Shown: positions 2,064 through 18,530, counted from the stretch's first letter. The stretch is 32,000 nt of DNA from Fibrobacter succinogenes subsp. succinogenes S85 (GCF_000146505.1 NC_017448.1:1140001-1172000); one strand, 5' to 3'. A program made the numbers and translations. The notes: generated by a model from the letters alone, not told the origin.

Positions 2064-2651
2064 TTAACCTTTTTTCGCTTTCTTCCGTTCGCGGCGGGCC
2101 ACCACCATCGGGCGCACAAGCGTTGCGATGTTCATCGCCGTTCCAATCAAAATCAGGAAGCTTGCGCAGTACAGCCCAACGCCACCTTCAACTTTCAGTA
2201 GTGGGATTCCAAGCGTCCCCCCGATGTGTGAAAGTTTCATCAATAGAGACCATAGCGAAATCATGGACAAGAGCCCCATTACCGTTGATGCTAGCGGTAC
2301 AATCCACGAGAACACCGCCGCTAAAACAACCGCAGCAATAATCCCATACAAGTGAGGTACCGCTTCCATTTTCGGGAAGTTCGGCATCTGCGCCTTGAAG
2401 TGATCCTGAACCTTCGGGTTTTCCTTAATCATGCGGTGCATTTGCCCCAGCGCAGGCTCCGAAATTGATTCATCGAGATCTACACCTGATGCAATCTGGT
2501 AGAACGTCATCTGCGCAATCGGCTTGCTATCGTCTTTTGCCGAACAAGACACATTTGCAAGCGGCATCAAAAGCGCAAGCAGCACAAGCAAATACGGGAG
2601 CGCCGTAAGCTTCTTGAAAAGTTTCATTTCCTTACTAGAATTGTTACTCAT
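2064..2651 (-). CDS. Hypothetical membrane protein (N-terminal signal/anchor, C-terminal multi-TM region, basic tail)
   Basis: 195 aa. Hydrophobic N-terminus KKLTALPYLLVLLALLMPLA, at least three hydrophobic helices in the C-terminal half, ends RRERKKAKKG. Its ATG overlaps the stop of the upstream gene (TAATG), suggesting translational coupling. Confidence 0.7.
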   Translation of the reverse strand: MSNNSSKEMKLFKKLTALPYLLVLLALLMPLANVSCSAKDDSKPIAQMTFYQIASGVDLDESISEPALGQMHRMIKENPKVQDHFKAQMPNFPKMEAVPHLYGIIAAVVLAAVFSWIVPLASTVMGLLSMISLWSLLMKLSHIGGTLGIPLLKVEGGVGLYCASFLILIGTAMNIATLVRPMVVARRERKKAKKG

Positions 2652-5098
2652 TATTTCCCCTGAATAATTTTATCGAGCGTGAACACGCAGCGGAAGCCGA
2701 TGCCGTCAGACCAATAGCGCGGATCTTCGTCATCGCGAGCCGTCATGTTCAACTTCTTTTCTTTATCCTTCCAAGAACCACCCTTTAAGACTTTGCTCGT
2801 ACCCCAGAAAGAACCGGTCGGATTGGAACTTTCAATAGAGAACGTGATTGCAAAGTAATTGTCACGAGTCCATTCGGCAACGTTACCCGACATGTCGTAA
2901 AGCCCCCATGCGTTTGGAGCTTTGGACGCTACATCGTGCGGACCATAATCAGCATCTTTCTTCCCCTTCTTAAAGGAATTACCTGCAAATACGGCATACT
3001 TGTTCACGCCCATGGCGTCATCAGAAGTCCAAAGATAGCCATCGTTACTACCGGCGCGGCCCGCAAATTCCCACTGGGCTTCAGTCGGCAAATCTCCACC
3101 GAGGACCTTGCAAGCGTACTGTGCATTTTCCCACGTAATATTCTGGACAGGCTTGTTCGGACCCTTAAATGCAGACTTGTCCGGATAACGCTTTGTAGAA
3201 TCCAGGAGTCCCATAATCTTGTGGAAAAATTCCTGAGTCACTTCTGTTGTGTGGATTGCAAACGGCGACATGGAAACAACCTTGCCACGATAGCGGAACG
3301 AGCCAGAATCAATAAGAGCAACCGTTCCACGAGAAGCGTGTTCAACAACATTAAACACAGGCTCAGTCTTGACCGTATCCGGTGCGGCAGAAGAAGAACT
3401 CGGAGCCACAGACGAAGAAGACTCTGGACCTCTCTTCAACCATTCTTCCACTTCCTTTTCAACGAGAATGTGCTTAGGCAACTTAAATTCACCCTTACCA
3501 AAATAGAGAGAATCGCCCATACGGAAGCCAAGCTTTTCATAGCGGTACTGGTAACGGCCCACGAGGTCGCCTTCCTTGAACACCCATACCGGCTTGTTAT
3601 TTACAAGGAACAAAGTCGTCACAAGAGATGTGTTGCCTTCAGCGAGCAACGTCACAAGAGAATCCATCGGGAAACTTTCAACAACACCCTTCCAGGATAC
3701 TTCAACACGTTCTCGTTCCGCACCAAAGCTGAGGTTCAAAGAATCAATCTTATTAGATTCAACGATTTTCATGATGGTATCGGCAGGAGACTTGCTTGAA
3801 TCTATGACGATAGTCGTATCCGGAGCCTTCATAATTTTTTCAATCGCAACCGGCATCATGTTGATTTGGAACGGGAGCGCCTGGAGGCTATCAAGCTTCG
3901 CATGGAACGCCTTGTACAAGTTGCTCACGACACCGAGCTTCTTTTGACGCCAGAGGTTCTGCGCCTCGGAGCGCTTGAGATTGTAGTGGGCCACATAACC
4001 GCGATAGACCTTTCCTGAATCCGCGAGTCCAAGGGAATCCGCAGGCTTGATGGCCGGATAGAATTTTGAGAACTCCGTCGTATCTACACGCTTAAAGTTC
4101 TTGTCAACTTCAGCGGAGAACGCATCGTAAAGCGCTTCGGTTTCTTCAAGCGTCTGGAGTGCCTGCACCTGTTCAATCGTCACGGACGGGACTACCGGAG
4201 CTGTTTTTGCTTCGGCAACATTAGAAACAGGAACCACGCTTGAACTAGAAGCAGGAGCATCAAAGTCAGGAATTGCGATAACCGAGTTCGAAGAATCTGC
4301 TGAGCTAGAAGAAACGGCACCTGAATCAAGGACTGCTGCACTAGAACTTGATGCCACTGCAGAACTAGATGCAGCTGCATTTGAGTCAACAGTGACCGCA
4401 ACACTCGTATCGGGAGCAGGGAATTTCACGTTGAACGTGAGGACTTCGCCCGACTGGAGGTTTCCAATATCAGCGTACGGAAGTTGATCAGGGGCGTTAA
4501 ACGAGAAAACATAAGTTCCCGGATTCACAGGATAAAGAGACCTGGTTCCCGGTTTCATCTTTGCGCTAAGGGAAACAATTTCCAAGTTCTTTTCATCAGA
4601 CAGGATTTGCACCATTCCCGGGTGGACGCTTTCTTTCAAGACCTCCCACTTACCATTCTTCATGAACAAGAGCTTTGATACCCGTGGAGAGTAAATATAT
4701 TCGGTATCAAAGTAAATGTCCGCTTCGTCCTGGAAAGCTTTGTACTGACGAGAGGCATACAAACGCAAGCCTAGCACTTCACGAGCGCCTAAGTGATTTT
4801 CCTTGAGGTTGTAAGCATGGAGCTTCTTATATTCCTCGGCCTTAGCCTCGCCCGAGAACCAAAGGTACTCCTTCGCAGAGTTTTTATGACGGAGGTACAG
4901 GCGGTTGGGCAGCAACGGGAACACGGGTTCTTGCGATATCGCCACGGAACTGTCCAGGACGATTGCAAAATTGGTCGCATGCTCCAAGGCATTACCGACT
5001 TTAAAATTTTCCGAAGACAATTTAAAGTTACGATCCTCATCGGCCATTGTTAATGCCGGGACCAGCAACAAAAGCGGAAGCAGTCGGGAAAATGTCAT
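2651..5098 (-). CDS. Secreted multidomain protein with C-terminal formylglycine-generating-enzyme (FGE-sulfatase / SUMF1) type domain
   Basis: 815 aa. Signal peptide MTFSRLLPLLLLVPALTMA. Two Ser/Ala-rich linkers (AAASSSAVASSSSAA..., ESSSSVAPSSSSAAP). C-terminal motifs ITWENAQYACKVLGGDLPTEAQWEFAGRAG, NAWGLYDMSGNVAEWT, LKGGSW and GFRCV are typical of the FGE-sulfatase fold. AGGAGA RBS. Confidence 0.85.
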   Translation of the reverse strand: MTFSRLLPLLLLVPALTMADEDRNFKLSSENFKVGNALEHATNFAIVLDSSVAISQEPVFPLLPNRLYLRHKNSAKEYLWFSGEAKAEEYKKLHAYNLKENHLGAREVLGLRLYASRQYKAFQDEADIYFDTEYIYSPRVSKLLFMKNGKWEVLKESVHPGMVQILSDEKNLEIVSLSAKMKPGTRSLYPVNPGTYVFSFNAPDQLPYADIGNLQSGEVLTFNVKFPAPDTSVAVTVDSNAAASSSAVASSSSAAVLDSGAVSSSSADSSNSVIAIPDFDAPASSSSVVPVSNVAEAKTAPVVPSVTIEQVQALQTLEETEALYDAFSAEVDKNFKRVDTTEFSKFYPAIKPADSLGLADSGKVYRGYVAHYNLKRSEAQNLWRQKKLGVVSNLYKAFHAKLDSLQALPFQINMMPVAIEKIMKAPDTTIVIDSSKSPADTIMKIVESNKIDSLNLSFGAERERVEVSWKGVVESFPMDSLVTLLAEGNTSLVTTLFLVNNKPVWVFKEGDLVGRYQYRYEKLGFRMGDSLYFGKGEFKLPKHILVEKEVEEWLKRGPESSSSVAPSSSSAAPDTVKTEPVFNVVEHASRGTVALIDSGSFRYRGKVVSMSPFAIHTTEVTQEFFHKIMGLLDSTKRYPDKSAFKGPNKPVQNITWENAQYACKVLGGDLPTEAQWEFAGRAGSNDGYLWTSDDAMGVNKYAVFAGNSFKKGKKDADYGPHDVASKAPNAWGLYDMSGNVAEWTRDNYFAITFSIESSNPTGSFWGTSKVLKGGSWKDKEKKLNMTARDDEDPRYWSDGIGFRCVFTLDKIIQGK

Positions 5099-5167: not shown

Positions 5168-8100
5168 TTATTTTGACGAATTCGCCCCCATTTCGAGCAA
5201 GTAACCGCCTTTTGCACCACCCACAGGACCCAATTCAACCTTCCAGTCGGCCAAACGGATAATATCGGGATGGTGTTCAATGACAATGACTGTATCGCCA
5301 CGGGCCGAAAGCCTGCGCAAGAGGTTCCAAAGAATCTGAATGTCCTTCAGGTGGAGGCCTGTTGTCGGCTCATCAAGTAAGTAGACCATTTCCGTAGCCG
5401 GACGGCGGCAAAGTTCTGCAGCAAGTTTCAAACGCTGGGATTCACCACCGCTAAGCGTCGTGACCGGCTGACCGAGTTTCACATACGGGAGGCCCACATC
5501 ACGGAGGCATTCGAGCTTCGGCAAAATTTTCGGCTGATCCTTGAAGAACTCGCAAGCTTCTACGACGCGCATGTCAAGTACATCGGCAATGTTCTTGCCC
5601 TTGAACGTGACTGTAAGCGTTTCCTGATTGTAGCGCTTGCCACCGCAGACTTCGCAAGTTTCCCAGATATCCGAAAGGAAATGCATCTCAACAGCAACGG
5701 CGCCACGGCCTTCGCAAGCGGGGCAACGGCCACGCGCAAGGTTATAACTGAAACGACCGTAATCAAAGCCCTTCATCTTGGACTGTTCAAGTTTGGCAAA
5801 CAGCTTGCGGATATCGTCAAAGACGCCTGTAAAGCTCGCCGGCGTACTGCGCGGCGTTCCCGAAATCGGGCTCTGGTCCACAAGCAAGACTTCGCCGCTC
5901 TGTTTTTTGCGGCCGCGAGCCTGGAACTGCTTTTTGAGCGCCGGGAAAATTTCATCGACAACGAGAGAACTCTTGCCCGAACCCGAAACGCCACAGACAA
6001 CGCTCACCGCCTTCTTGGGGAATTTTACAGACAAGTTCTTAAGGTTGTTCGCCTTGAGGTTTTTGAACTCGTAAAATTCAGTATCATCCGTAATACGCAC
6101 GGGTTCCAACTGGTTTGCCACCGGAGTCGAATACGTGAGGAACTTGACCGTTTCGCTACGCGGGAACTGTTGCAACGCATACGGTTTTGCAAGTTCTGCA
6201 GGAGAGCCTTCGGCAACGACTTCACCACCGAAATCGCCTGCACCAGGGCCCATATCGATAATGTGGTCTGCGGCCTGCATCATCTTAAGATCGTGTTCCA
6301 CAACCACGAGCGTATTGCCAAGGTCACGCAAGCGGTAAAGCGTGTCCAAAAGTTTTGCAGTATCGCTTTCATGTAGTCCGACGGTCGGTTCGTCCAGCAC
6401 GTACAAGACGCCTTCAAGACCGCTACCAATCTGACTTGCCAAGCGGATGCGCTGGGATTCACCGCCCGAAAGCGTATCGCCCGCGCGATCAAGGCCAATG
6501 TAGCCTAACCCCACGCTAATCAAGAAGTCCAAGCGACCAATGATTTCGCGGAGAAGCGGAGACGCAATCGTCGTTTTACTTTGGATGGTCGCAGATGTTG
6601 CATTTTCTTCGTTTGCAAAATCAACTTTCGCAAACCAGTCGCGAGCTTCGGCAATGCTCATGTGATGCACATCCATGATGTTCTTGCCCAAGATGCGCAC
6701 CGCAAGATATTCAGGTTTCAAGCGTTCACCATGGCAATCCGGGCATTCTTCGCCATCCTTGAAATGTCCAAGGCCGAGGCAAGTTTCACAAGCGCCCCAA
6801 TGCGTGTTGAAACTGAAATGTTTCGGGTTGAGTGCGGAATCCATGTACCAGCCACATTCCGGGCAGCCCGGCTTTTCACTAGCCGAGAGGCGTTCTTCGC
6901 CATCGCAATCCACATAGAGGATTCCGTTACCATCGCGGTAGCCGCGTTCAAACGCTTCGACGAGACGAGCACGATTTTCTTCCTTGACGACCACGGAATC
7001 GACCACAGCGAGCAACTGCTTTTCACGCGTGGGCATTTTCGGCAGCGGGAGTTCTACGAGCTTTTTGCCGAGATAAGCCTTGCGGTAACCCTTTTCCGTG
7101 AGAATCTTGGAGAGCTTAATTTCGTCCTTGATTTCGAACGGAGCAAGAATCGTCACCATCTTGTTGAGGTCACGATCGAACGCATGCTGCATCAAGTCGC
7201 CCGTCGCATAAGAGCTGATGGGCTTTCCACAATGGAGGCAGTGAGCCGTACCCACGCGAGCCCACAAAATGCGGAAGTAGTCGTAAATCTCGGTGAGCGT
7301 TGCGACCGTACTGCGCGGGCTCTTGCTTGCACTCTTCTGGTCAATGGCAATCGCAGGTGCCAAGCCCGAAATAGAATCGATGCTACCGCGGTCGGGGCGT
7401 CCCAAGAATCGGCGAGCATAAGTGCTGAGCGTTTCGACAAAGCGGCGCTGGCCTTCGCTAAAGAGCGTATGGAACGCAAGGCTCGACTTGCCCGAGCCCG
7501 AAACGCCCGTAATCACGGTGAGCTTGTGGCGCGGAATCGTCACATCGATGTTCTTGAGGTTGTGCTTGCGAGCGCCATGCACTTCGATATCGAGCGAGTA
7601 ATCTTCGCCCTTTTCATCCGTACGTTCAAAATGCTTGTTTTCGCCATGCTTTTTCGCCAAAACCGGAGCCAAGTAACGCCCCGTCTCCGACTTTTTGCAC
7701 TTGGCAATTTGTTCGGGAGTTCCCGTCGCGATAATGCGGCCGCCATTCACGCCCGCATCCGGGCCAAGGTCAATAATCCAATCCGCACACTTGATTACGT
7801 CGAGGTTGTGTTCAATCACCACGACGCTGTTGCCGAGACTACGCAAGCGGTTCAAGCATTCGAGCAATCGGCGGATATCTTCAAAATGCAAACCGGTTGT
7901 CGGTTCATCAAGCAAGTAAAGCGTCTTGCCCGTACCCGGACGGCGCAGTTCCGAAGCAATCTTCACGCGCTGCGCTTCGCCACCGCTCAGAGTTGTAGAA
8001 GGCTGACCGAGTGTGAGGTAGCCAAGGCCCACTTCGCAAAGGAGCTTGAGCGGTTCTGCAATTTTCGGAATGTCCTTGAAAAATTCAGCGGCTTCGCTGA

Positions 8101-10483
8101 TGCTCATGTCAAGAACTTCAGAAATGTTCTTGCCCTTGAAATAAACTTCACGAGTCGCTTCGTTAAAGCGCTTGCCATCGCACACATCGCAAGTGACTTG
8201 CACGCTCGGCAAAATGTGCATGTCGATGACCTTCACGCCAGCGCCTTCGCAAGCGTCACAGCGACCACCCTTCACGTTAAAGCTAAAGCGGCTCTTCGTG
8301 TACCCGCGCACCTTGCTTTCTTCCATACCGGCAAACAAATCGCGGATATCGTCCCAAATTTTCGTGTAAGTGGCAGGGTTACTGCGCGGGGTGCGCCCAA
8401 TCGGAGTCTGGTCAATTTCAATGACCTTGTCGATGTTTTCGAGACCTTCCAAATGGTCGAACTTGCCGACCGGTTCTTCGGAATTGTAGAATACGCGAGC
8501 CAGTTCGCGGCGCAAAATCTGGTTGATGAGCGTGCTCTTGCCCGAACCCGAAACACCCGTAACTACGGTAAACGCACCGCCAAGCGGAATTTCGACATCG
8601 ACATTCTTGAGGTTGTTTTCGCAAGCACCACAAATCTTAAGCTTCGGCGTCTTTGCATCAATCTTCAATCGCTGCGACGGAATTTCAATCGACTTGCGAC
8701 CGCTCAAATACGCGCCCGTAAGTGACGACTTATTCTTTTCGAGTTCATCGACCGTGCCAGCCGCCAAAATGCGACCGCCCTCGACACCCGCACCAGGGCC
8801 AACATCAATCACGCAGTCTGCATGACGCATCGTATCCTCATCGTGTTCCACGATGAGAAGGCTGTTGCCTTGGGCTCGCAAGCGCTCGAGCATCTCGAGC
8901 AACTTATCGTTGTCACGTGGGTGCAGCCCAATACTCGGTTCATCAAGCACATAAAGCACGCCCTGGAGCCCCGCACCCACGGCGCTTGCAAGCCTGATAC
9001 GCTGCGCCTCACCGCCCGAAAGTGTCGAAGCCTTGCGGCTAATGTCCAAATAGCCAAGGCCCACCGCCTTCAAGAATCCAAGGCGCCCGCGAATTTCCTT
9101 GAGCACTTCGCGACCGATGCGCTGCTCCTTCGAGCTCAACTTGAGCTTGTCAAAAAACTCAACGGACTTTTCAACAGACCATTCCGTCATCTCGCAAATG
9201 TTATGACCATGGAAATCAACTGCCGCCGCAATGCGGTTGATTCTTGTGCCGTGGCATTCCGGACAAACGCCAATCTGCATATACTTTCGGAAGTGGTAAA
9301 TATGCCACATGTCCCAAAGTTCCTGCATAATCGTCACCACACCGCGTTCACTCCCGCTCGGAGTCCCGTAAAGCACGGCATCCTGCTGCGCCTTTTTGAG
9401 CTTATTCCACGGCGTATCAAGCGAAAAGTGCATTTCGTTTGCAATCGTACGCAAATTGCGCCAACCAAAATCGCTAAAGATAATGCAGCCGTCATCCTTC
9501 TTTTGCGGAGCAAGGCACCCCTCTTTCAAAGACAAATTCGGATTCGGAACAATCAAGTTAATGTCAAATTCGCAACTTTCGCCAAGACCCTTGCAGGCGG
9601 GGCATTGCCCCTTCGGGTCATTAAAGCTAAAGAATCGCGGTTCAAGTTCCGGAATAGAAATTCCGCACTTCGGGCAAGCGAGCTGCGTACCCTGCAAGCG
9701 GTATTCTTCCTTCGCGGCAGCCCCCTGCGACGCATCCGCCGCAGCATCCGAGCCCGCCTCCTGCGATGTCAGCAAGAACGATACAAGCTTTCCGTCCGTG
9801 AGCTTGAGCGCACCTTCAATGGCCTCGCGCAAACGGCTCATGTTCTTGCGTTCAAGCGTCAAGCGGTCAATCACCACTTCAATCGTGTGCTTCTCGTAAC
9901 GCACCAACAGCGGCACTTCTTCAAGCCTGTAAATCGTCCCGTCCACGCGTACGCGGACAAAGCCATTTTCCTTAAGCTCCGCAAGTTCCTTGCGGTATTC
10001 GCCCTTGCGCTCCTGCACAATCGGCGCCATCACCAAAATCTTTTTATTCTCGTCGCTAGCGTACAAGTTATCGACAATCTGGTCGACGGACTGCGCCTGA
10101 ATCACCTTGCCACACTTAGGGCAATGCGGAACGCCAAGGCGAGCAAACATCAAACGGTAATGGTCCAAAATCTCGACCACCGTACCCACCGTACTACGCG
10201 GGTTACGATTCACCGTCTTCTGGTCAATCGAAATCGTCGGAGAAATCCCGCGAACGCTCTCCACGTCCGGATGCTTCATGCGGCCAATGAACTGGCGCGC
10301 ATACGCTGAAAGCGACTCCACAAAGCGGCGCTGCCCTTCCTGGAACACCGTATCAAAAGCAAGGCTCGACTTGCCCGAGCCCGAAACGCCAGTCACCACG
10401 ACTATCGAGTCGCGGGGAATCGTCAAATCGACATGGCGGAGGTTGTGTTCATGAGCATCGCGGATTTCAATAGATTTCGTCAT
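5168..10483 (-). CDS. uvrA: Tandem-fused double UvrA (excinuclease ABC subunit A-like), 1771 aa, four ABC ATPase modules
   Basis: Walker A GVSGSGKS at aa 32, 643, 993 and 1498. LSGGE[AS]QR signatures at aa 488, 832, 1338 and 1677. UvrA-type CxxC zinc modules are present in both halves. N-terminus [52 protein letters not shown] is the canonical UvrA start, repeated at aa 974-1026. Confidence 0.9.
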
Positions 10484-10490
10484 GAACGCA

Positions 10491-10519
10491 AATATAGAAA
10501 AAGAGGCTCCAAATGTCTA
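10491..10519 (-). promoter_or_regulatory. Possible promoter of the uvrA fusion (TAGACA-N17-TATATT), with the -10 ending 7 nt before the ATG (leaderless candidate)
   Basis: The reverse complement reads TAGACA tttggagcctctttttc TATATT tgcgttc ATG. No Shine-Dalgarno-like purine run lies upstream of the ATG. Confidence 0.3.
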
Positions 10520-10554: not shown

Positions 10555-10580
10555 AACAGCCACGATTTCTCGTGGCTGTT
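10555..10580 (-). terminator. Rho-independent terminator downstream of the lipoprotein gene
   Basis: 10-bp perfect stem AACAGCCACG / CGTGGCTGTT with loop ATTTCT. On the minus strand it is followed by TTCTATCT. It lies 33 nt past the stop at 10613. Confidence 0.6.
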
Positions 10581-10612: not shown

Positions 10613-12373
10613 TTAGTTACCACACTGGTCATAGGATCCGAACTTATCCACGACAAATTCGCCATCCACAGGGAACTGAAGTCGCACGGACGTAATTTTT
10701 CCGATGACATCTTCAATCTTTTCACTAGATTCCTCGTCAATATTCTTGAAAGCCTTCCAAGAAACCTTGCCCCACGTCATGTCGTCGGAATATTCAACTT
10801 CGGTATACCAGTATTTATTTGCAGCGGCATCGGTGACAAGAGCGATTCTAATGAAGTTGTAAGTACTGTAATGGATGCAAAAGCCATCCCATGCGCTGAT
10901 ATCAGCCGGTTCATTATTTGAACTTACAGTATTAAAGCCAATCGTCGCAACACTATCCAAATTATAGAGAAAATCATCCGATTTCACGTATGCCGTAAAC
11001 TTATGATGTTTATTCAACAAAGATGCAATGACATTTCCGTTATCATCAGCTTCAACATCGTCGGGGAACCCGAAACTATACGTATCCATTTCATCCGGAG
11101 AGTTGGTCCAAACGCCACCAGCCGTTGCACCGGAAATTCCGAGATCCACATGGTCGCCGTCAACAGATGCATCCCACAAGAAGCTCTTTCCAGACTTGTA
11201 GCTAGAAGACTGCGTCGGCTTCACTTCTTCAAATTCACCGGATTCCTTAACAGAAAGGTTTTCCGGCACCAAGGCGCTAATACGTCTGATTCCGAAACGT
11301 GTTCCAGCCTTGTTTTCCTTTGCAAATTTCAAGCGTACCTTCGCCAAATGCTTCAGGATATCGTCAGAACCATTCAAGACATCGGCGAACACGGCACAGT
11401 TCTTTTCCATATCGTCGTTCTTTGCCAAAGTCATTGTCTTGACACTCTTTTCAAGAGTTCCCGTCGAGGAATCCCCAGGAACAAGTTCCATCACAATATC
11501 CATTTGCGATTCATATTCCAAGCACAGGCCCTTCCACAAGCCAGACACATCGGCCGTATAAATGAAATCCTTGTCATTTTTAGTGGTTTTCCCGGCTACA
11601 AGGAATTCAAGACCAACATCCGGACTTGAACTGGAACCCTCAAAGACTACATTTCCATAAAGGCCTTCACTATAATAGATTCTTTCAGCCATATCCGAAA
11701 AATCACCTTCGCCATCCCAGTCAAAGTAAGCTTCGGAAGAATTTTCAAAGAAAGTCAGCTCGCCAGAAGTACCCTTATCGCCTTTTTCAAAGCCGGTCTC
11801 TACGCGGGACTTGCCATCCTTACCAATCCACATATCCGAGCGAACATAAGGAGTCAGGCGCTGGATGCTAAATTCACCCGTCGAACCCGATTCACCCACA
11901 AAGACCAGCTGCACAGAACGCACCTTCTTGACAACGTCAGAACCATCCGTATCATCCGACTTCTTCATCTTGAAATCTTCCCAAGATGCGCAATGACTTT
12001 CGGATCCAGAATCCTTCATATTCAGGCTGACAAAAGGCACATCCTTATCAACAGAAGAGCTTGCGTAGTCTTCCGTATCCAAGCGAACTTCCACAACAAA
12101 GTCAGACTTGTACGAAACGCACAAACCATCGCCACCCTGAGAAAGATCGGCAGGAGAACCATCCGGGCTGGAAACGTCATAGGCGATACCGGCACGTGCA
12201 AGGTCATCCCCGGACTTTTTCAACGAAACACGGCCGAGCAAAGCGCTCTTGGTATTTTCCAGCTTAATATCGGATCCCTTCATGACATTCCAATCCTTAA
12301 GATTGGCTGTTTCATTCCAGAATGCATTTTTTTTCTTCGGTGGTTCCATAGCTTTTGGAAGCCACGGGATCAT
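10613..12373 (-). CDS. Surface/lipoprotein body with three internal beta-sandwich-like repeats (reading frame lacks its signal peptide; see 12312..12446)
   Basis: 586-codon ORF. Triplicated motif sets GDGLCVSYKSD / WKGLCLEYESQ / WDGFCIHYSTY and VRSVQLVF / KVRLKF / SVRLQF. No signal peptide at the annotated start MIPWLPKAMEPPKKK. Confidence 0.8.
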   Translation of the reverse strand: MIPWLPKAMEPPKKKNAFWNETANLKDWNVMKGSDIKLENTKSALLGRVSLKKSGDDLARAGIAYDVSSPDGSPADLSQGGDGLCVSYKSDFVVEVRLDTEDYASSSVDKDVPFVSLNMKDSGSESHCASWEDFKMKKSDDTDGSDVVKKVRSVQLVFVGESGSTGEFSIQRLTPYVRSDMWIGKDGKSRVETGFEKGDKGTSGELTFFENSSEAYFDWDGEGDFSDMAERIYYSEGLYGNVVFEGSSSSPDVGLEFLVAGKTTKNDKDFIYTADVSGLWKGLCLEYESQMDIVMELVPGDSSTGTLEKSVKTMTLAKNDDMEKNCAVFADVLNGSDDILKHLAKVRLKFAKENKAGTRFGIRRISALVPENLSVKESGEFEEVKPTQSSSYKSGKSFLWDASVDGDHVDLGISGATAGGVWTNSPDEMDTYSFGFPDDVEADDNGNVIASLLNKHHKFTAYVKSDDFLYNLDSVATIGFNTVSSNNEPADISAWDGFCIHYSTYNFIRIALVTDAAANKYWYTEVEYSDDMTWGKVSWKAFKNIDEESSEKIEDVIGKITSVRLQFPVDGEFVVDKFGSYDQCGN

Positions 12374-12447: not shown

Positions 12448-13281
12448 TCAGCCCTCATCTTTTTTATGTGTATTTTTTGACAAAGGAAACATCTGCAAGT
12501 TCAAGCGATAAACTTGACATGGTTCCTTACTCGTGTTGGCAATCGCCACAATCTTTCTGCGACAGGAATCCAATTCCCGCACAATCTGTTCATAAGTTTC
12601 GCGATCAATACCCATGGTCACACCGGAAACGTCGCGATCATGGACATCAAACTGATCTATAGCCTTCTGTGCAAAGCCCGCCATTTCACGGTGCATGGAG
12701 CGAACAACCAAAGGCATCACTTCGGAATTACCGACCAAGGCCTTATCCGTCTGCTCATAGACATTTTCGGACTTGCGTTGCAAAATCCCGACTCTCACCA
12801 TAAAATCCAGGGAATTACGGACTTCATCGGCAGTAATCGGGTTCCAGCACATTTGAGCAACATCTTCGGGAGTAGCCCCAGGCATCATCGCCACCAGTTC
12901 ACGCAGAACCGGATTTTTCCAGGATTCAAAATACGTGAACGCATCCCCATCGACCACTCGAATTTTGTTAGCGTCCGCAATATTTCTCATGTTTGCAAAG
13001 GCGGTCTTTTTCGTTTCGTCATCCTTCGCTTGGTTATACCGCACCAAATTGCGAAAATAAGCATTTTCAAAGCCGCCCAAATTCATAGCCGCAGCGACTC
13101 TTTCAATCCCCAACTCGCTAAGGCTGCTTTTCCCTTCACACACCAACTTCAAGTAAGTTGGCGACGTAAAGCCTGCCAGACGCGCGAATTCACGCCACGT
13201 AAACGAGCTAGTCCTCTTACGCTCATCATAAAAATCCTGCATGCAGCAGCGATAATCACGATATTCTGTTACTGGTTTCAT
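12448..13281 (-). CDS. HTH-type putative regulator, TIGR02147 / DUF4423-like paralogous family
   Basis: 277 aa. The N-terminus YRCCMQDFYDERKRTSSFTWREFARLAGFTSPTYLKLVCEGKSSLS looks like the HTH-containing N-terminus of this family as I remember it. Tightly coupled to the downstream lipoprotein signal-peptide ORF. Confidence 0.7.
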   Translation of the reverse strand: MKPVTEYRDYRCCMQDFYDERKRTSSFTWREFARLAGFTSPTYLKLVCEGKSSLSELGIERVAAAMNLGGFENAYFRNLVRYNQAKDDETKKTAFANMRNIADANKIRVVDGDAFTYFESWKNPVLRELVAMMPGATPEDVAQMCWNPITADEVRNSLDFMVRVGILQRKSENVYEQTDKALVGNSEVMPLVVRSMHREMAGFAQKAIDQFDVHDRDVSGVTMGIDRETYEQIVRELDSCRRKIVAIANTSKEPCQVYRLNLQMFPLSKNTHKKDEG

Positions 13282-16757: not shown

Positions 16758-18530
16758 ATGACCGTCCGCGCCGATGTTACCCCTGATAATCCGTCCCGTG
16801 CAGAAATCGACTTTTCACGAATAGCCAACTTACTTGACGACAATTGGCTCGTCTGGATGAACAGATCCTGGTATTTCGACAACGACACCACAGGCTCCGT
16901 CCTGCGTGAAGTTGACGCGGTTCTTTACCATCGCAAGTACGGCCTCCTCCTTGTCGAATGCAAAGCCGGGAAAATTTCCGCCCGAACACAAAACCAAACA
17001 GGCAATGTTGTCTGGATGCAAAGCGGAAAGTCCATGGCGAAACCGCCACACATGCAAGTCGCCTCGCTAATCGCCCCGCTACACGAATACATGAAACTAT
17101 TGCTCAAAGCACCCCAGAACAAAGAATTCTACAGAGTGCGCGTACAATGGGCCGTATGTTTCAGCGACATGGAGAACATGGAAGGCATTCCTCTCTCGGA
17201 AATTCCGAGAAAACGAGCCCTTTTAAAGCCCGACATGCAAGACGTGAACAAGTTTGAAGAACGTTTAATCGAAATTCTTCAAACCCCCGAAGAATCCCAT
17301 GGCGGGCGCCCCTACCCGAACGACTATCTTGACGAAGATGCCTTCTTTGCGCTCCGCAACTTTTTTGACGGCATCGGCGACATGCAAACCGCCGCAGACG
17401 CGCTCCGCGAAGACAGCTACTATTCCGAGCAAGCCACAGAAATGCAGCAGATGATGATGGACTCCATCTCCCGGAACAACCGCGTGAGAATTGAAGGCGT
17501 GGCAGGCTCCGGAAAATCGCGCATGGTCGTCTGGGAAGCTTTGCGACTTTCCAAAATCGGTAAAAGCGTCGCCATCGCCTGCTACAACGACCTGCTCGCC
17601 GAAGAACTACGCAAAGAAGTGGAATCCGCCCTCGCCAAAGAACGCAAAATCGTCACCGCCAAATACGGGCGCGACGGAGGAGTCGGTTTTGGGAAAATCG
17701 AAGTCAACGTTTACGCCGACTGGTGCAAAAAATACGCCAAGGCTGTAAAAGAACTGCCAAAAATGGGCGCCGACAAATCGCAGTATTACGACAAGGAACT
17801 GCCCAAAGCATTCACCAACGCCCAGACAAAACTGTTCAAGGACAAGAAGCAGCGCGAAAAGATGTTCTTTGACGCCGTCATTATCGACGAAGCGCAGGAC
17901 TTTGCCAGCGAATGGATTGACTCGCTCATAGGCCTCTTGCGCGATAAGGAGCGCGGATACGCACGTATTTTCTATGACCCGGCACAGCGACTTTACGCCA
18001 AGAGAAACGGCATTGAAAACGCACAAGTGAAAGCGATGCCCGTCATGGTTCTCAAGCGAGCATTCCGCAACACCAAGAAAATTCTGGAGTGGATTTACAA
18101 GAACACCAACATTCGCTTGCAGAGCTATAACAACACGCCGCAAGGCTACCCTGTCAAGGAATATCGCTATAGAGACTCATCGGAACAAGAGCAGTTACTG
18201 CTCAACAGCTACAATGAACTCGTTCGAAAGTACGAACTCAAGCCATCCGAAATTCTCGTCGTTTCCATGCATAGCGAAGCCAGATCCGGCATCAAGAACA
18301 TTTCTAACGACACCTTTGCATGGAACAAGGTCGGCGGCAAGAAACTCATCCAAGATAAGGTAAACATCGTGAGTGCCTACCGCATCAAGGGGCTCGACAC
18401 AATGGCGGTAATCCTCGTCGATGTGGAAGAACCGACCGAGACAAGCAAGCGCGAAGACTGGAAACGCCTTCTGCTCGTTGGCGCCACCCGCGCCAAGAAA
18501 CTGCTGACCGTCATCCGAAAGAAAGCGTAA
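16758..18530 (+). CDS. NERD (PD-(D/E)xK nuclease-related) domain fused to a superfamily-1 UvrD-like helicase/ATPase
   Basis: 590 aa. NERD core EVDAVLYHRKYGLLLVECKAGKI followed by W...KPPHMQV. Helicase motifs GVAGSGKSR (Walker A), VIIDEAQDF (Walker B), FYDPAQRLY, SAYRIKGLDTMAVILV and LLLVGATRAKKLL (motif VI). Confidence 0.88.
   Translation: MTVRADVTPDNPSRAEIDFSRIANLLDDNWLVWMNRSWYFDNDTTGSVLREVDAVLYHRKYGLLLVECKAGKISARTQNQTGNVVWMQSGKSMAKPPHMQVASLIAPLHEYMKLLLKAPQNKEFYRVRVQWAVCFSDMENMEGIPLSEIPRKRALLKPDMQDVNKFEERLIEILQTPEESHGGRPYPNDYLDEDAFFALRNFFDGIGDMQTAADALREDSYYSEQATEMQQMMMDSISRNNRVRIEGVAGSGKSRMVVWEALRLSKIGKSVAIACYNDLLAEELRKEVESALAKERKIVTAKYGRDGGVGFGKIEVNVYADWCKKYAKAVKELPKMGADKSQYYDKELPKAFTNAQTKLFKDKKQREKMFFDAVIIDEAQDFASEWIDSLIGLLRDKERGYARIFYDPAQRLYAKRNGIENAQVKAMPVMVLKRAFRNTKKILEWIYKNTNIRLQSYNNTPQGYPVKEYRYRDSSEQEQLLLNSYNELVRKYELKPSEILVVSMHSEARSGIKNISNDTFAWNKVGGKKLIQDKVNIVSAYRIKGLDTMAVILVDVEEPTETSKREDWKRLLLVGATRAKKLLTVIRKKA

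Follow-up and report, generated by a model that had tools for sequence, protein, structure and literature searches.

The tandem double UvrA of Fibrobacter succinogenes S85, a probable single-chain and asymmetric damage sensor of nucleotide excision repair

UvrA, the damage sensor of nucleotide excision repair (NER), is canonically a protein of about 940 aa that works as a homodimer; this symmetric assembly has an asymmetric job, with the lesion on one strand and one UvrB left there. As for longer forms, the curated model NF001885 / PRK00635 covers 1809 positions and is taken here to represent the Chlamydia-type UvrA, presumably of about 1786 aa, and a class of duplicated UvrAs was reportedly mentioned by Goosen and Moolenaar in 2008. 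The locus considered here lies in a stretch of 32,000 nt from the chromosome of Fibrobacter succinogenes subsp. succinogenes S85 (NC_017448.1, 1140001-1172000; the whole stretch is called the window below), where the gene FSU_1023 encodes two unlike UvrA units arranged head to tail in one chain. This protein is read, with a probability of roughly two in three, as the NER damage sensor UvrA acting as a single-chain, asymmetric pseudo-dimer. The gene already carries the annotation 'UvrABC system protein A' (UniProt C9RM46) and its architectural class is already in curated databases, so its value lies in a comparative pattern and not in a new system; the pattern is that one of the two units has repeatedly lost a domain, that the interface has changed differently in each unit and that a double form seems to have reverted to a single unit.

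Regarding the gene, FSU_1023 is one open reading frame (ORF) of 1771 codons, as an initial annotation made from the sequence had proposed with the strand left unstated; it runs on the minus strand (Table 1), and its product has a mass of 197 kDa as a single chain. The finished F. succinogenes S85 chromosome, CP001792.1, encodes an identical protein, and two peptides of FSU_1023 were found in the envelope proteome of this strain (supplement of PMC6851124). The Walker A motif GVSGSGKS occurs four times (aa 32, 643, 993 and 1498), as do the signature LSGGE[AS]QR (aa 488, 832, 1338 and 1677) and the Walker B motif LDEP. The CxxC pairs stand at 121/270, 294/407 and 742/765 in unit 1 and at 1082/1207, 1232/1247 and 1587/1610 in unit 2, and they would form three zinc modules (Zn1 to Zn3) of four Cys in each unit. 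All the motif positions given in the initial annotation were exact on re-check and, as far as the residues tell, four of four ATPase sites and six of six zinc modules are intact. A chance origin is far excluded by the four-fold occurrence of 8-residue motifs in an ORF of 1771 codons, together with hidden Markov model (HMM) scores of 950-1320 bits per half. The head-to-tail arrangement of two UvrA units, also part of that annotation, is supported by the motifs, by the Pfam and NCBIfam HMMs and by alignments; the units share 46% identity in their C-terminal 532 residues and 38% in the N-terminal 299, which points to an old duplication and not to a recent repeat.

Unit 1 is a canonical class I UvrA, with a UvrB-binding domain, an insertion (DNA-binding) domain and three zinc modules. 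It scored above the equivalog cutoffs for class I UvrA (NF001503, 1319 bits against 1147; TIGR00630, 1274 against 730), it matched the Pfam families UvrA_inter (PF17760, 121 bits with a cutoff of 23.3) and UvrA_DNA-bind (PF17755, 55 bits), and it had 52-53% identity with UvrAs from Firmicutes. Its UvrB-binding domain keeps the conserved RKGE, R177, R179, H199 and R207 positions, while the tip of its Zn3 hairpin differs: Ile757 occupies the place of the Phe found in canonical UvrAs, and it is Ile in 8/8 orthologs. As a separate observation, the UvrB-binding domain contains at aa ~239-260, immediately ahead of the second Zn1 CxxC, a low-complexity insert rich in Ala, Gly and Ser, [21 protein letters not shown]; it is hypervariable, and its length ranges from 0 to about 20 residues even between relatives that are 96-98% identical.

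As for unit 2, it passed the cutoff of TIGR00630 (933 bits against 730) and fell below that of NF001503 (952 against 1147). The insertion domain, which the initial annotation had found missing from this unit, is indeed absent: the Pfam UvrA_DNA-bind match is confined to the first half of the protein, and the alignment with the C. thermocellum UvrA (PDB 9gxk) breaks into two blocks, 27-333 and 422-939, the gap between them (residues ~334-421) being the insertion domain. When mapped on unit 1, unit 2 covers positions 4-302 and 406-922, a pattern that is identical in all the full-length homologs of 1720-1860 aa; in total, FSU_1023 has one insertion domain per two units. In 51 aligned double UvrAs, the invariant elements of unit 2 are both Walker A Lys, both signatures, both Walker B Asp-Glu, both H-loop His, the four Cys of Zn2, the four Cys of Zn3 and a Y-A-R-x-F element. 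The tip of its Zn3 hairpin is Phe1602, with Phe in 8/8 orthologs. An AlphaFold2 (AF2) model of unit 2 had a predicted local distance difference test score (pLDDT) of 86.1 and a predicted template modelling score (pTM) of 0.73, and it matched G. stearothermophilus UvrA with template modelling scores relative to the query (TMq) of 0.86-0.88, the highest being with 3uwx_A (0.88); in Foldseek, class II structures ranked below those of class I.

The segment between the Zn1 CxxC pairs of unit 2 had been described as a diverged UvrB-binding-like insert, and this description held, with a Pfam UvrA_inter match of 29.9 bits (cutoff 23.3). When modelled alone by AF2, the insert reached a pLDDT of 91.6, and its best Foldseek matches were UvrB-binding domains of solved structures at 22-26% identity (3uwx_A, TMq 0.86; 3fpn_A, score relative to the target (TMt) 0.83; the UvrA/TRCF core 4dfc, TMt 0.80). 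Canonical UvrB-binding domains have 36 positions with a conservation of 80% or more, and the Fibrobacterales unit 2 inserts keep on average about half of them; the canonical residues lost are R159-K-G-E162, R177K, R179Y, H199K, E202L and R207S, while D1162, R1173 and E1179 are under selection and retained in all lineages, and the Zn1 Cys of unit 2 are gone in several. The confident fold match, taken with the loss of about half of the conserved positions and of Zn1 Cys, indicates that the predicted fold of a UvrB-binding domain is kept here and its surface is remodelled. This insert is also the fastest-evolving folded part of the protein, with a column entropy of 2.04 bits compared with 1.19 for its counterpart in unit 1, and the cores of the nucleotide-binding domains (NBDs) are equally conserved in both units (mean identity to the query of 0.86-0.88 for the N-terminal core, 68 Fibrobacterales orthologs).

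Compared with class I UvrA (NF001503 / TIGR00630; PDB 2r6f, 3pih, 3uwx, 9gxk), unit 1 shares every domain and unit 2 shares the ABC core, the three zinc modules, the Zn3 hairpin and the UvrB-binding fold. The differences are that class I UvrA is a homodimer of ~940-aa chains, whereas FSU_1023 has two non-identical units in a chain of 1771 aa; that the insertion domain of class I is present in unit 1 and absent in unit 2; and that several interface and hairpin residues, invariant in class I, are changed in a unit-specific manner. As for the long model NF001885, FSU_1023 is double-length like it and collinear with it across the junction (aa 400-1182 align with model positions 392-1158), but its score of 1243 bits is far from the cutoff of 3054 and places it outside that equivalog family. 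The Chlamydia-type long UvrA was not found among the representative matches, and five other doubles scored about 1000-1040 bits on NF001885. Judged from these profile scores, the Fibrobacter-type double UvrA is a lineage distinct from the NF001885 family.

The class II UvrAs (Deinococcus radiodurans UvrA2, DrrC and Ecm16; PDB 2vf7, 7sh1) are likewise UvrA-derived ABC ATPases with altered accessory domains; they are without the UvrB-binding domain and keep the insertion domain (PMC3167621, PMC9328131). In unit 2 this pattern is reversed, with the UvrB-binding-like domain kept and the insertion domain lost, and FSU_1023 falls outside class II in that both of its units have a UvrB-binding domain and the Zn1 Cys.

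Regarding the breadth of the family, 120 out of the 120 best full-length homologs of FSU_1023 are double UvrAs. Full-length homologs of 1720-1860 aa extend from 98% down to about 50% identity, and those with a name belong to Fibrobacter, Fibrobacteraceae or Fibrobacterales; an undivided ORF, with a linker that varies and keeps the frame, is shared by more than 60 Fibrobacterales protein clusters, which come from JGI, NCBI, ENA and Logan assemblies. With unit 2 as the query, a HMMER search of 1.84 billion representative proteins returned 61,332 matches, and the best 150 of them, which were examined, are almost all double UvrAs of 1550-2340 aa. Duplicated UvrAs had been regarded as rare in the initial annotation, a view that does not hold, as doubles fill these 150 best representative clusters and come from several phyla; they occur in Fibrobacterota, Planctomycetota, Poribacteria, Myxococcota and SAR324-like lineages. 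Double UvrAs are thus widespread in several phyla and apparently unstudied; no paper describing a duplicated UvrA was found in the limited literature searched.

A rough classification of the same 150 matches by the presence of the insertion domain gave 40 proteins with it in both units and 36 with it in the N unit only, as in FSU_1023; a few have the reversed order, with the domain in the C unit only, and doubles without the UvrB-binding domain are also among them. Both units are without the insertion domain in the Myxococcota-type doubles (1531-1654 aa). The doubles with two insertion domains from Planctomycetota and Poribacteria (1880-2400 aa), the SAR324-like ones with the domain in the N unit only and the Myxococcota-type ones are tandem fusions as well, with linkers of about 15-25 residues; the asymmetry between A84T in the N unit and S82A in the C unit appears again among them, while their domain complements differ. 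Doubles with an architecture other than the Fibrobacter type include P0133-P0136, P0138 and P0139, together with P0313, P0379, P0298 and P0312.

A neighbour-joining tree of 79 half-sequences (801 columns, 100 bootstraps) placed the C halves of Fibrobacterales, the SAR324-like lineage, P0064/P0108, P0088 and the Myxococcota type in one clade (100%), and the N halves of the same groups in a separate clade (99%). The branching order of one clade mirrors that of the other, which implies one ancient duplication-fusion and also speaks for the two units being partners; in both units that it joined, the ATPase sites (proximal and distal) are intact, and the Zn3 hairpin and the interface residues are kept. 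Forms with an insertion domain in unit 2 are interleaved with forms without it: P0072, which has the domain, is sister to Fibrobacterales (100% for both halves), and P0083, which has it too, is sister to the SAR324-like clade (94% and 100%). This interleaving indicates that the insertion domain of unit 2 was lost at least three times in this group, and the loss in Fibrobacterales was independent of those in the other lineages, since the nearest outgroup, P0072, keeps the domain. An additional loss occurred in a Poribacteria lineage (P0119 compared with P0087, both in the Planctomycetota/Poribacteria group), and in each case the Zn2 knuckles are now joined by a loop of 10-14 residues. A shared origin of the Planctomycetota/Poribacteria doubles with the Fibrobacterales group would have a bootstrap of only 49%.

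The opposite path, from two units to one, is suggested by Fibromonadales, which have single UvrAs of about 915 aa that are 62-65% identical to unit 1 (P0142, P0143, P0147, P0154, P0178). These proteins nest within the N-half clade of Fibrobacterales (91% and 98%) and retain residues specific to unit 1, namely I67, I81, T84, Q508 and the hairpin-tip Ile; on both grounds they look like the result of a secondary loss of unit 2, with reversion to a single gene. On the Fibromonadales contig that carries P0147 (locus L081, 8001-10775), no second uvrA-like gene was found near it.

As for the pairing of the two units, 15 published dimer-interface residues of ATP-binding domain I (PMC12796330) were checked in both units, and 15/15 were present or conservatively replaced in unit 1 and in unit 2. 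At positions invariant in 11 canonical UvrAs, fixed unit-specific changes occur: L67I, L81I and A84T in unit 1, and Y55F, S82A and M508E in unit 2. In the canonical homodimer, Y55 of a protomer touches S82-P83-A84 of its partner; in the fused protein, the symmetry-related patches read S-P-T on unit 1 and A-P-A on unit 2. T84 in the N unit and A82 in the C unit recur in the SAR324-like and Myxococcota-type doubles, and position 84 is S or T in 7/9 N units from Planctomycetota/Poribacteria. The hairpin tips are a second unit-specific asymmetry: the two copies of the tip Phe stack in the basal UvrA homodimer, whereas the pair would be Ile (unit 1) and Phe (unit 2) in FSU_1023. Judged on these residues, both asymmetries fit an obligate pair of unit 1 with unit 2, and they are compatible with pairing within a chain or between chains.

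The linker between the units bears on the same point. It is present as the initial annotation had said, although its coordinates, given there as ~7592-7648, are corrected to 7595-7654. Both its sequence and its length are hypervariable among orthologs (column entropy of 3.0 bits), and it is always in frame; across 286 double UvrAs its median length is 19 residues (interquartile range 16-25), and such a narrow distribution is the pattern expected from a fixed intramolecular span. The junction has no Met and no promoter-like site on the coding strand, so that a separate production of unit 2 is not expected. The asymmetric pseudo-dimer put forward in the initial annotation is plausible, with indirect backing from the kept interface residues and the unit-specific substitutions.

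In the proposed arrangement, units 1 and 2 would pair via the canonical interface, joined by a flexible tether of about 20 residues, and one chain would perform the work of the UvrA2 homodimer. The sensor would be asymmetric by construction: the insertion-domain clamp arm and the canonical UvrB docking site would come from unit 1 only, while unit 2 would complete the DNA groove with its second half and contribute two ATPase sites and the Phe-tipped hairpin, and its signature-II surface would contact the UvrB docked on unit 1. In mycobacterial UvrA, complexes of both UvrA2UvrB1 and UvrA2UvrB2 composition were seen, and the docking of UvrB on a protomer displaces the insertion domain of that protomer (PMC11985968). 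Since unit 1 would carry its only insertion domain and its only canonical docking site, FSU_1023 would be a natural analogue of the A2B1 state, and the loading of UvrB would, by analogy, resemble the UvrA2UvrB1 intermediate of the mycobacterial protein.

The alternative that survives best, albeit as an unlikely one, is that pairing takes place in trans, between units of different chains (unit 1 with unit 2, or each unit with its like), to give a four-unit assembly or open oligomers on DNA. The complete dimer interface kept in both units would permit it, and the unit-1-derived single UvrAs of Fibromonadales presumably still homodimerise; on the other side, the tether creates a very high local concentration for pairing within the chain, and the tight range of linker lengths fits a fixed intramolecular span. 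The complementary changes at the interface fit an obligate N:C pair, yet they do not separate cis from trans.

Regarding the function, the role of NER sensor is the most likely because no UvrA of canonical length named Fibrobacter was found among the best 120 relatives of unit 1, down to 52% identity, and because, apart from FSU_1023, S85 is reported to have a single COG0178 gene, the paralog Fisuc_0952 of ~708 aa (supplements of PMC3079729 and PMC5442110). Published F. succinogenes data that were searched for uvrB and uvrC yielded these two genes only. Three points weigh against the picture of a single-chain sensor with one clamp arm and one docking site. The gene is without NER neighbours, as the initial annotation had noticed for the genes that follow it, and no NER gene, uvrB and uvrC included, is present in the window. 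The Myxococcota-type doubles, which have neither insertion domain, mean that the one-clamp-arm logic is not general. Finally, the insert of unit 2, with its fold and D-R-E core kept, may still bind UvrB or Mfd, which would weaken the part of the proposal that concerns a single docking site, a site that the initial annotation had called probable.

The lack of NER genes nearby would also suit a specialised UvrA paralog, similar to class II UvrA2, DrrC and Ecm16, that acts independently of UvrB, for example in tolerance to a DNA-binding toxin; UvrA paralogs with other roles are known (PMC9328131), and doubles without the UvrB-binding domain do occur in the wider family. This explanation is improbable, as the UvrB-binding domain of unit 1 is fully canonical, unit 1 passes the UvrA equivalog cutoffs, and throughout Fibrobacterales the double form was the only UvrA-like protein to be found; moreover, the domain that class II is without is present in both units here. 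Less probable still is that unit 2 is in decay and without a function, leaving the work to unit 1. Unit 2 is indeed minus one domain, its insert evolves fastest and Fibromonadales manage entirely without it, but its NBD cores are conserved as well as those of unit 1, its catalytic motifs, Zn2/Zn3 Cys and hairpin-tip Phe are invariant across phyla, and it is older than the split between several phylum-level lineages and has been kept since. A lost stop codon or an assembly artefact has next to no probability and was rejected, considering that the chromosome is finished, that the ORF is uninterrupted in hundreds of independently sourced member sequences and that the in-frame linkers vary in sequence and length among homologs; conservation of the ORF across independent assemblies bears out the true in-frame fusion that the initial annotation had assumed.

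Returning to the single-chain sensor, a wider and more tentative proposal, held at less than even odds, is that fused UvrAs are natural, hard-wired asymmetric sensors with a divided labour, in which the N unit docks UvrB and clamps DNA, while the C unit supplies ATPase sites, the Phe-tipped hairpin and signature-II support. Current structural work debates UvrA2UvrB1 as opposed to UvrA2UvrB2, 'recognition' as opposed to 'support' insertion domains and the separation of the dimer for hand-off (PMC11985968, PMC12796330). If the proposal is true, a sensor would need no more than one insertion domain for NER, and possibly only a single site for the loading of UvrB, which bears on the stoichiometry question and on the model of recognition and support insertion domains. 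The repeated removal of the second insertion domain in evolution amounts to a natural deletion experiment, and a natural single-chain UvrA with unlike halves offers mutation of the ATPase site, hairpin, insertion domain or UvrB-binding domain in one half only, which is impossible in a homodimer.

Table 1. Location in the window of FSU_1023, its parts and the neighbouring features (nt counted from the first letter of the window)
Feature	Position (nt)	Strand	Residues (aa)	Remarks
Whole ORF, tandem double UvrA	5168-10483	-	1-1771	ATG start, 1771 aa + stop; FSU_1023 / UniProt C9RM46
Unit 1, canonical class I UvrA	7655-10483	-	1-943	UvrB-binding domain, insertion domain, three Zn modules
Unit 1 UvrB-binding domain	9665-10123	-	121-273	Between Zn1 CxxC pairs
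Ala/Gly/Ser-rich insert in that domain	9704-9769	-	~239-260	Low complexity
Unit 1 insertion (DNA-binding) domain	9254-9604	-	294-410	Between Zn2 CxxC pairs
Unit 1 Zn3 finger and beta-hairpin	8180-8260	-	742-768	
Inter-unit linker	7595-7654	-	944-963	[20 protein letters not shown]
Unit 2, UvrA unit without insertion domain	5171-7594	-	964-1771	Both ATPase sites intact
Unit 2 UvrB-binding-domain-like insert	6854-7240	-	1082-1210	Between Zn1 CxxC pairs
Unit 2 minimal Zn2 module	6734-6790	-		C1232-x2-C-x11-C1247-x2-C; 11-residue loop replaces insertion domain
Unit 2 Zn3 finger and beta-hairpin	5645-5725	-	1587-1613	
Promoter-like TAGACA-17 nt-TATATT	10491-10519	-		Consensus match only; ends 8 nt before ATG
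Hairpin cagccacg-agaaat-cgtggctg, then TTTCT	about 10557-10578	-		3' of upstream gene
Upstream neighbour	10613-12373	-		586 aa; no Pfam match
Downstream FGE-sulfatase-domain protein	2651-5098	-		815 aa; signal-peptide-like N-terminus
195-aa ORF	2064-2651	-		Signal-peptide or lipoprotein-like N-terminus
DUF4423 protein	12448-13281	-		
590-aa ORF	16758-18530	+		Weak UvrD-like helicase C-terminal match

As for the surroundings of the gene, the absence of a Shine-Dalgarno sequence noticed in the initial annotation was confirmed and, with a promoter-like site so close to the ATG, suggests a leaderless or near-leaderless mRNA; the double uvrA of a Fibrobacteraceae genome (locus L001) has a similarly short leader. 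The probably secreted FGE-domain protein was also correctly described as following on the same strand, at a distance of 69 nt. Both flanking genes are syntenic beside the double uvrA of the Fibrobacteraceae genome, whose UvrA is 75% identical (L001 7450-9204 and 15277-17469). The start of the 195-aa ORF overlaps the stop of the FGE-domain gene by one base, which suggests translational coupling of these two genes.

Farther from FSU_1023, the 590-aa ORF is the only other gene in the window with a flavour of DNA repair; its helicase match scored 27 bits with a cutoff of 25.6. Another copy of the DUF4423 protein lies just beyond the window (L082), so that a paralogous family recurs around the locus. 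Finally, Fisuc_0952 is also outside the window, at 1178194-1180320 of the S85 chromosome, where it is described as an 'excinuclease ATPase subunit-like protein' of genomic island 4 and adjoins a radical SAM gene; its fold changes in the expression tables of the study on acid-tolerant S85 strains were 1.24 and 1.30, both positive (supplements of PMC3079729 and PMC5442110).

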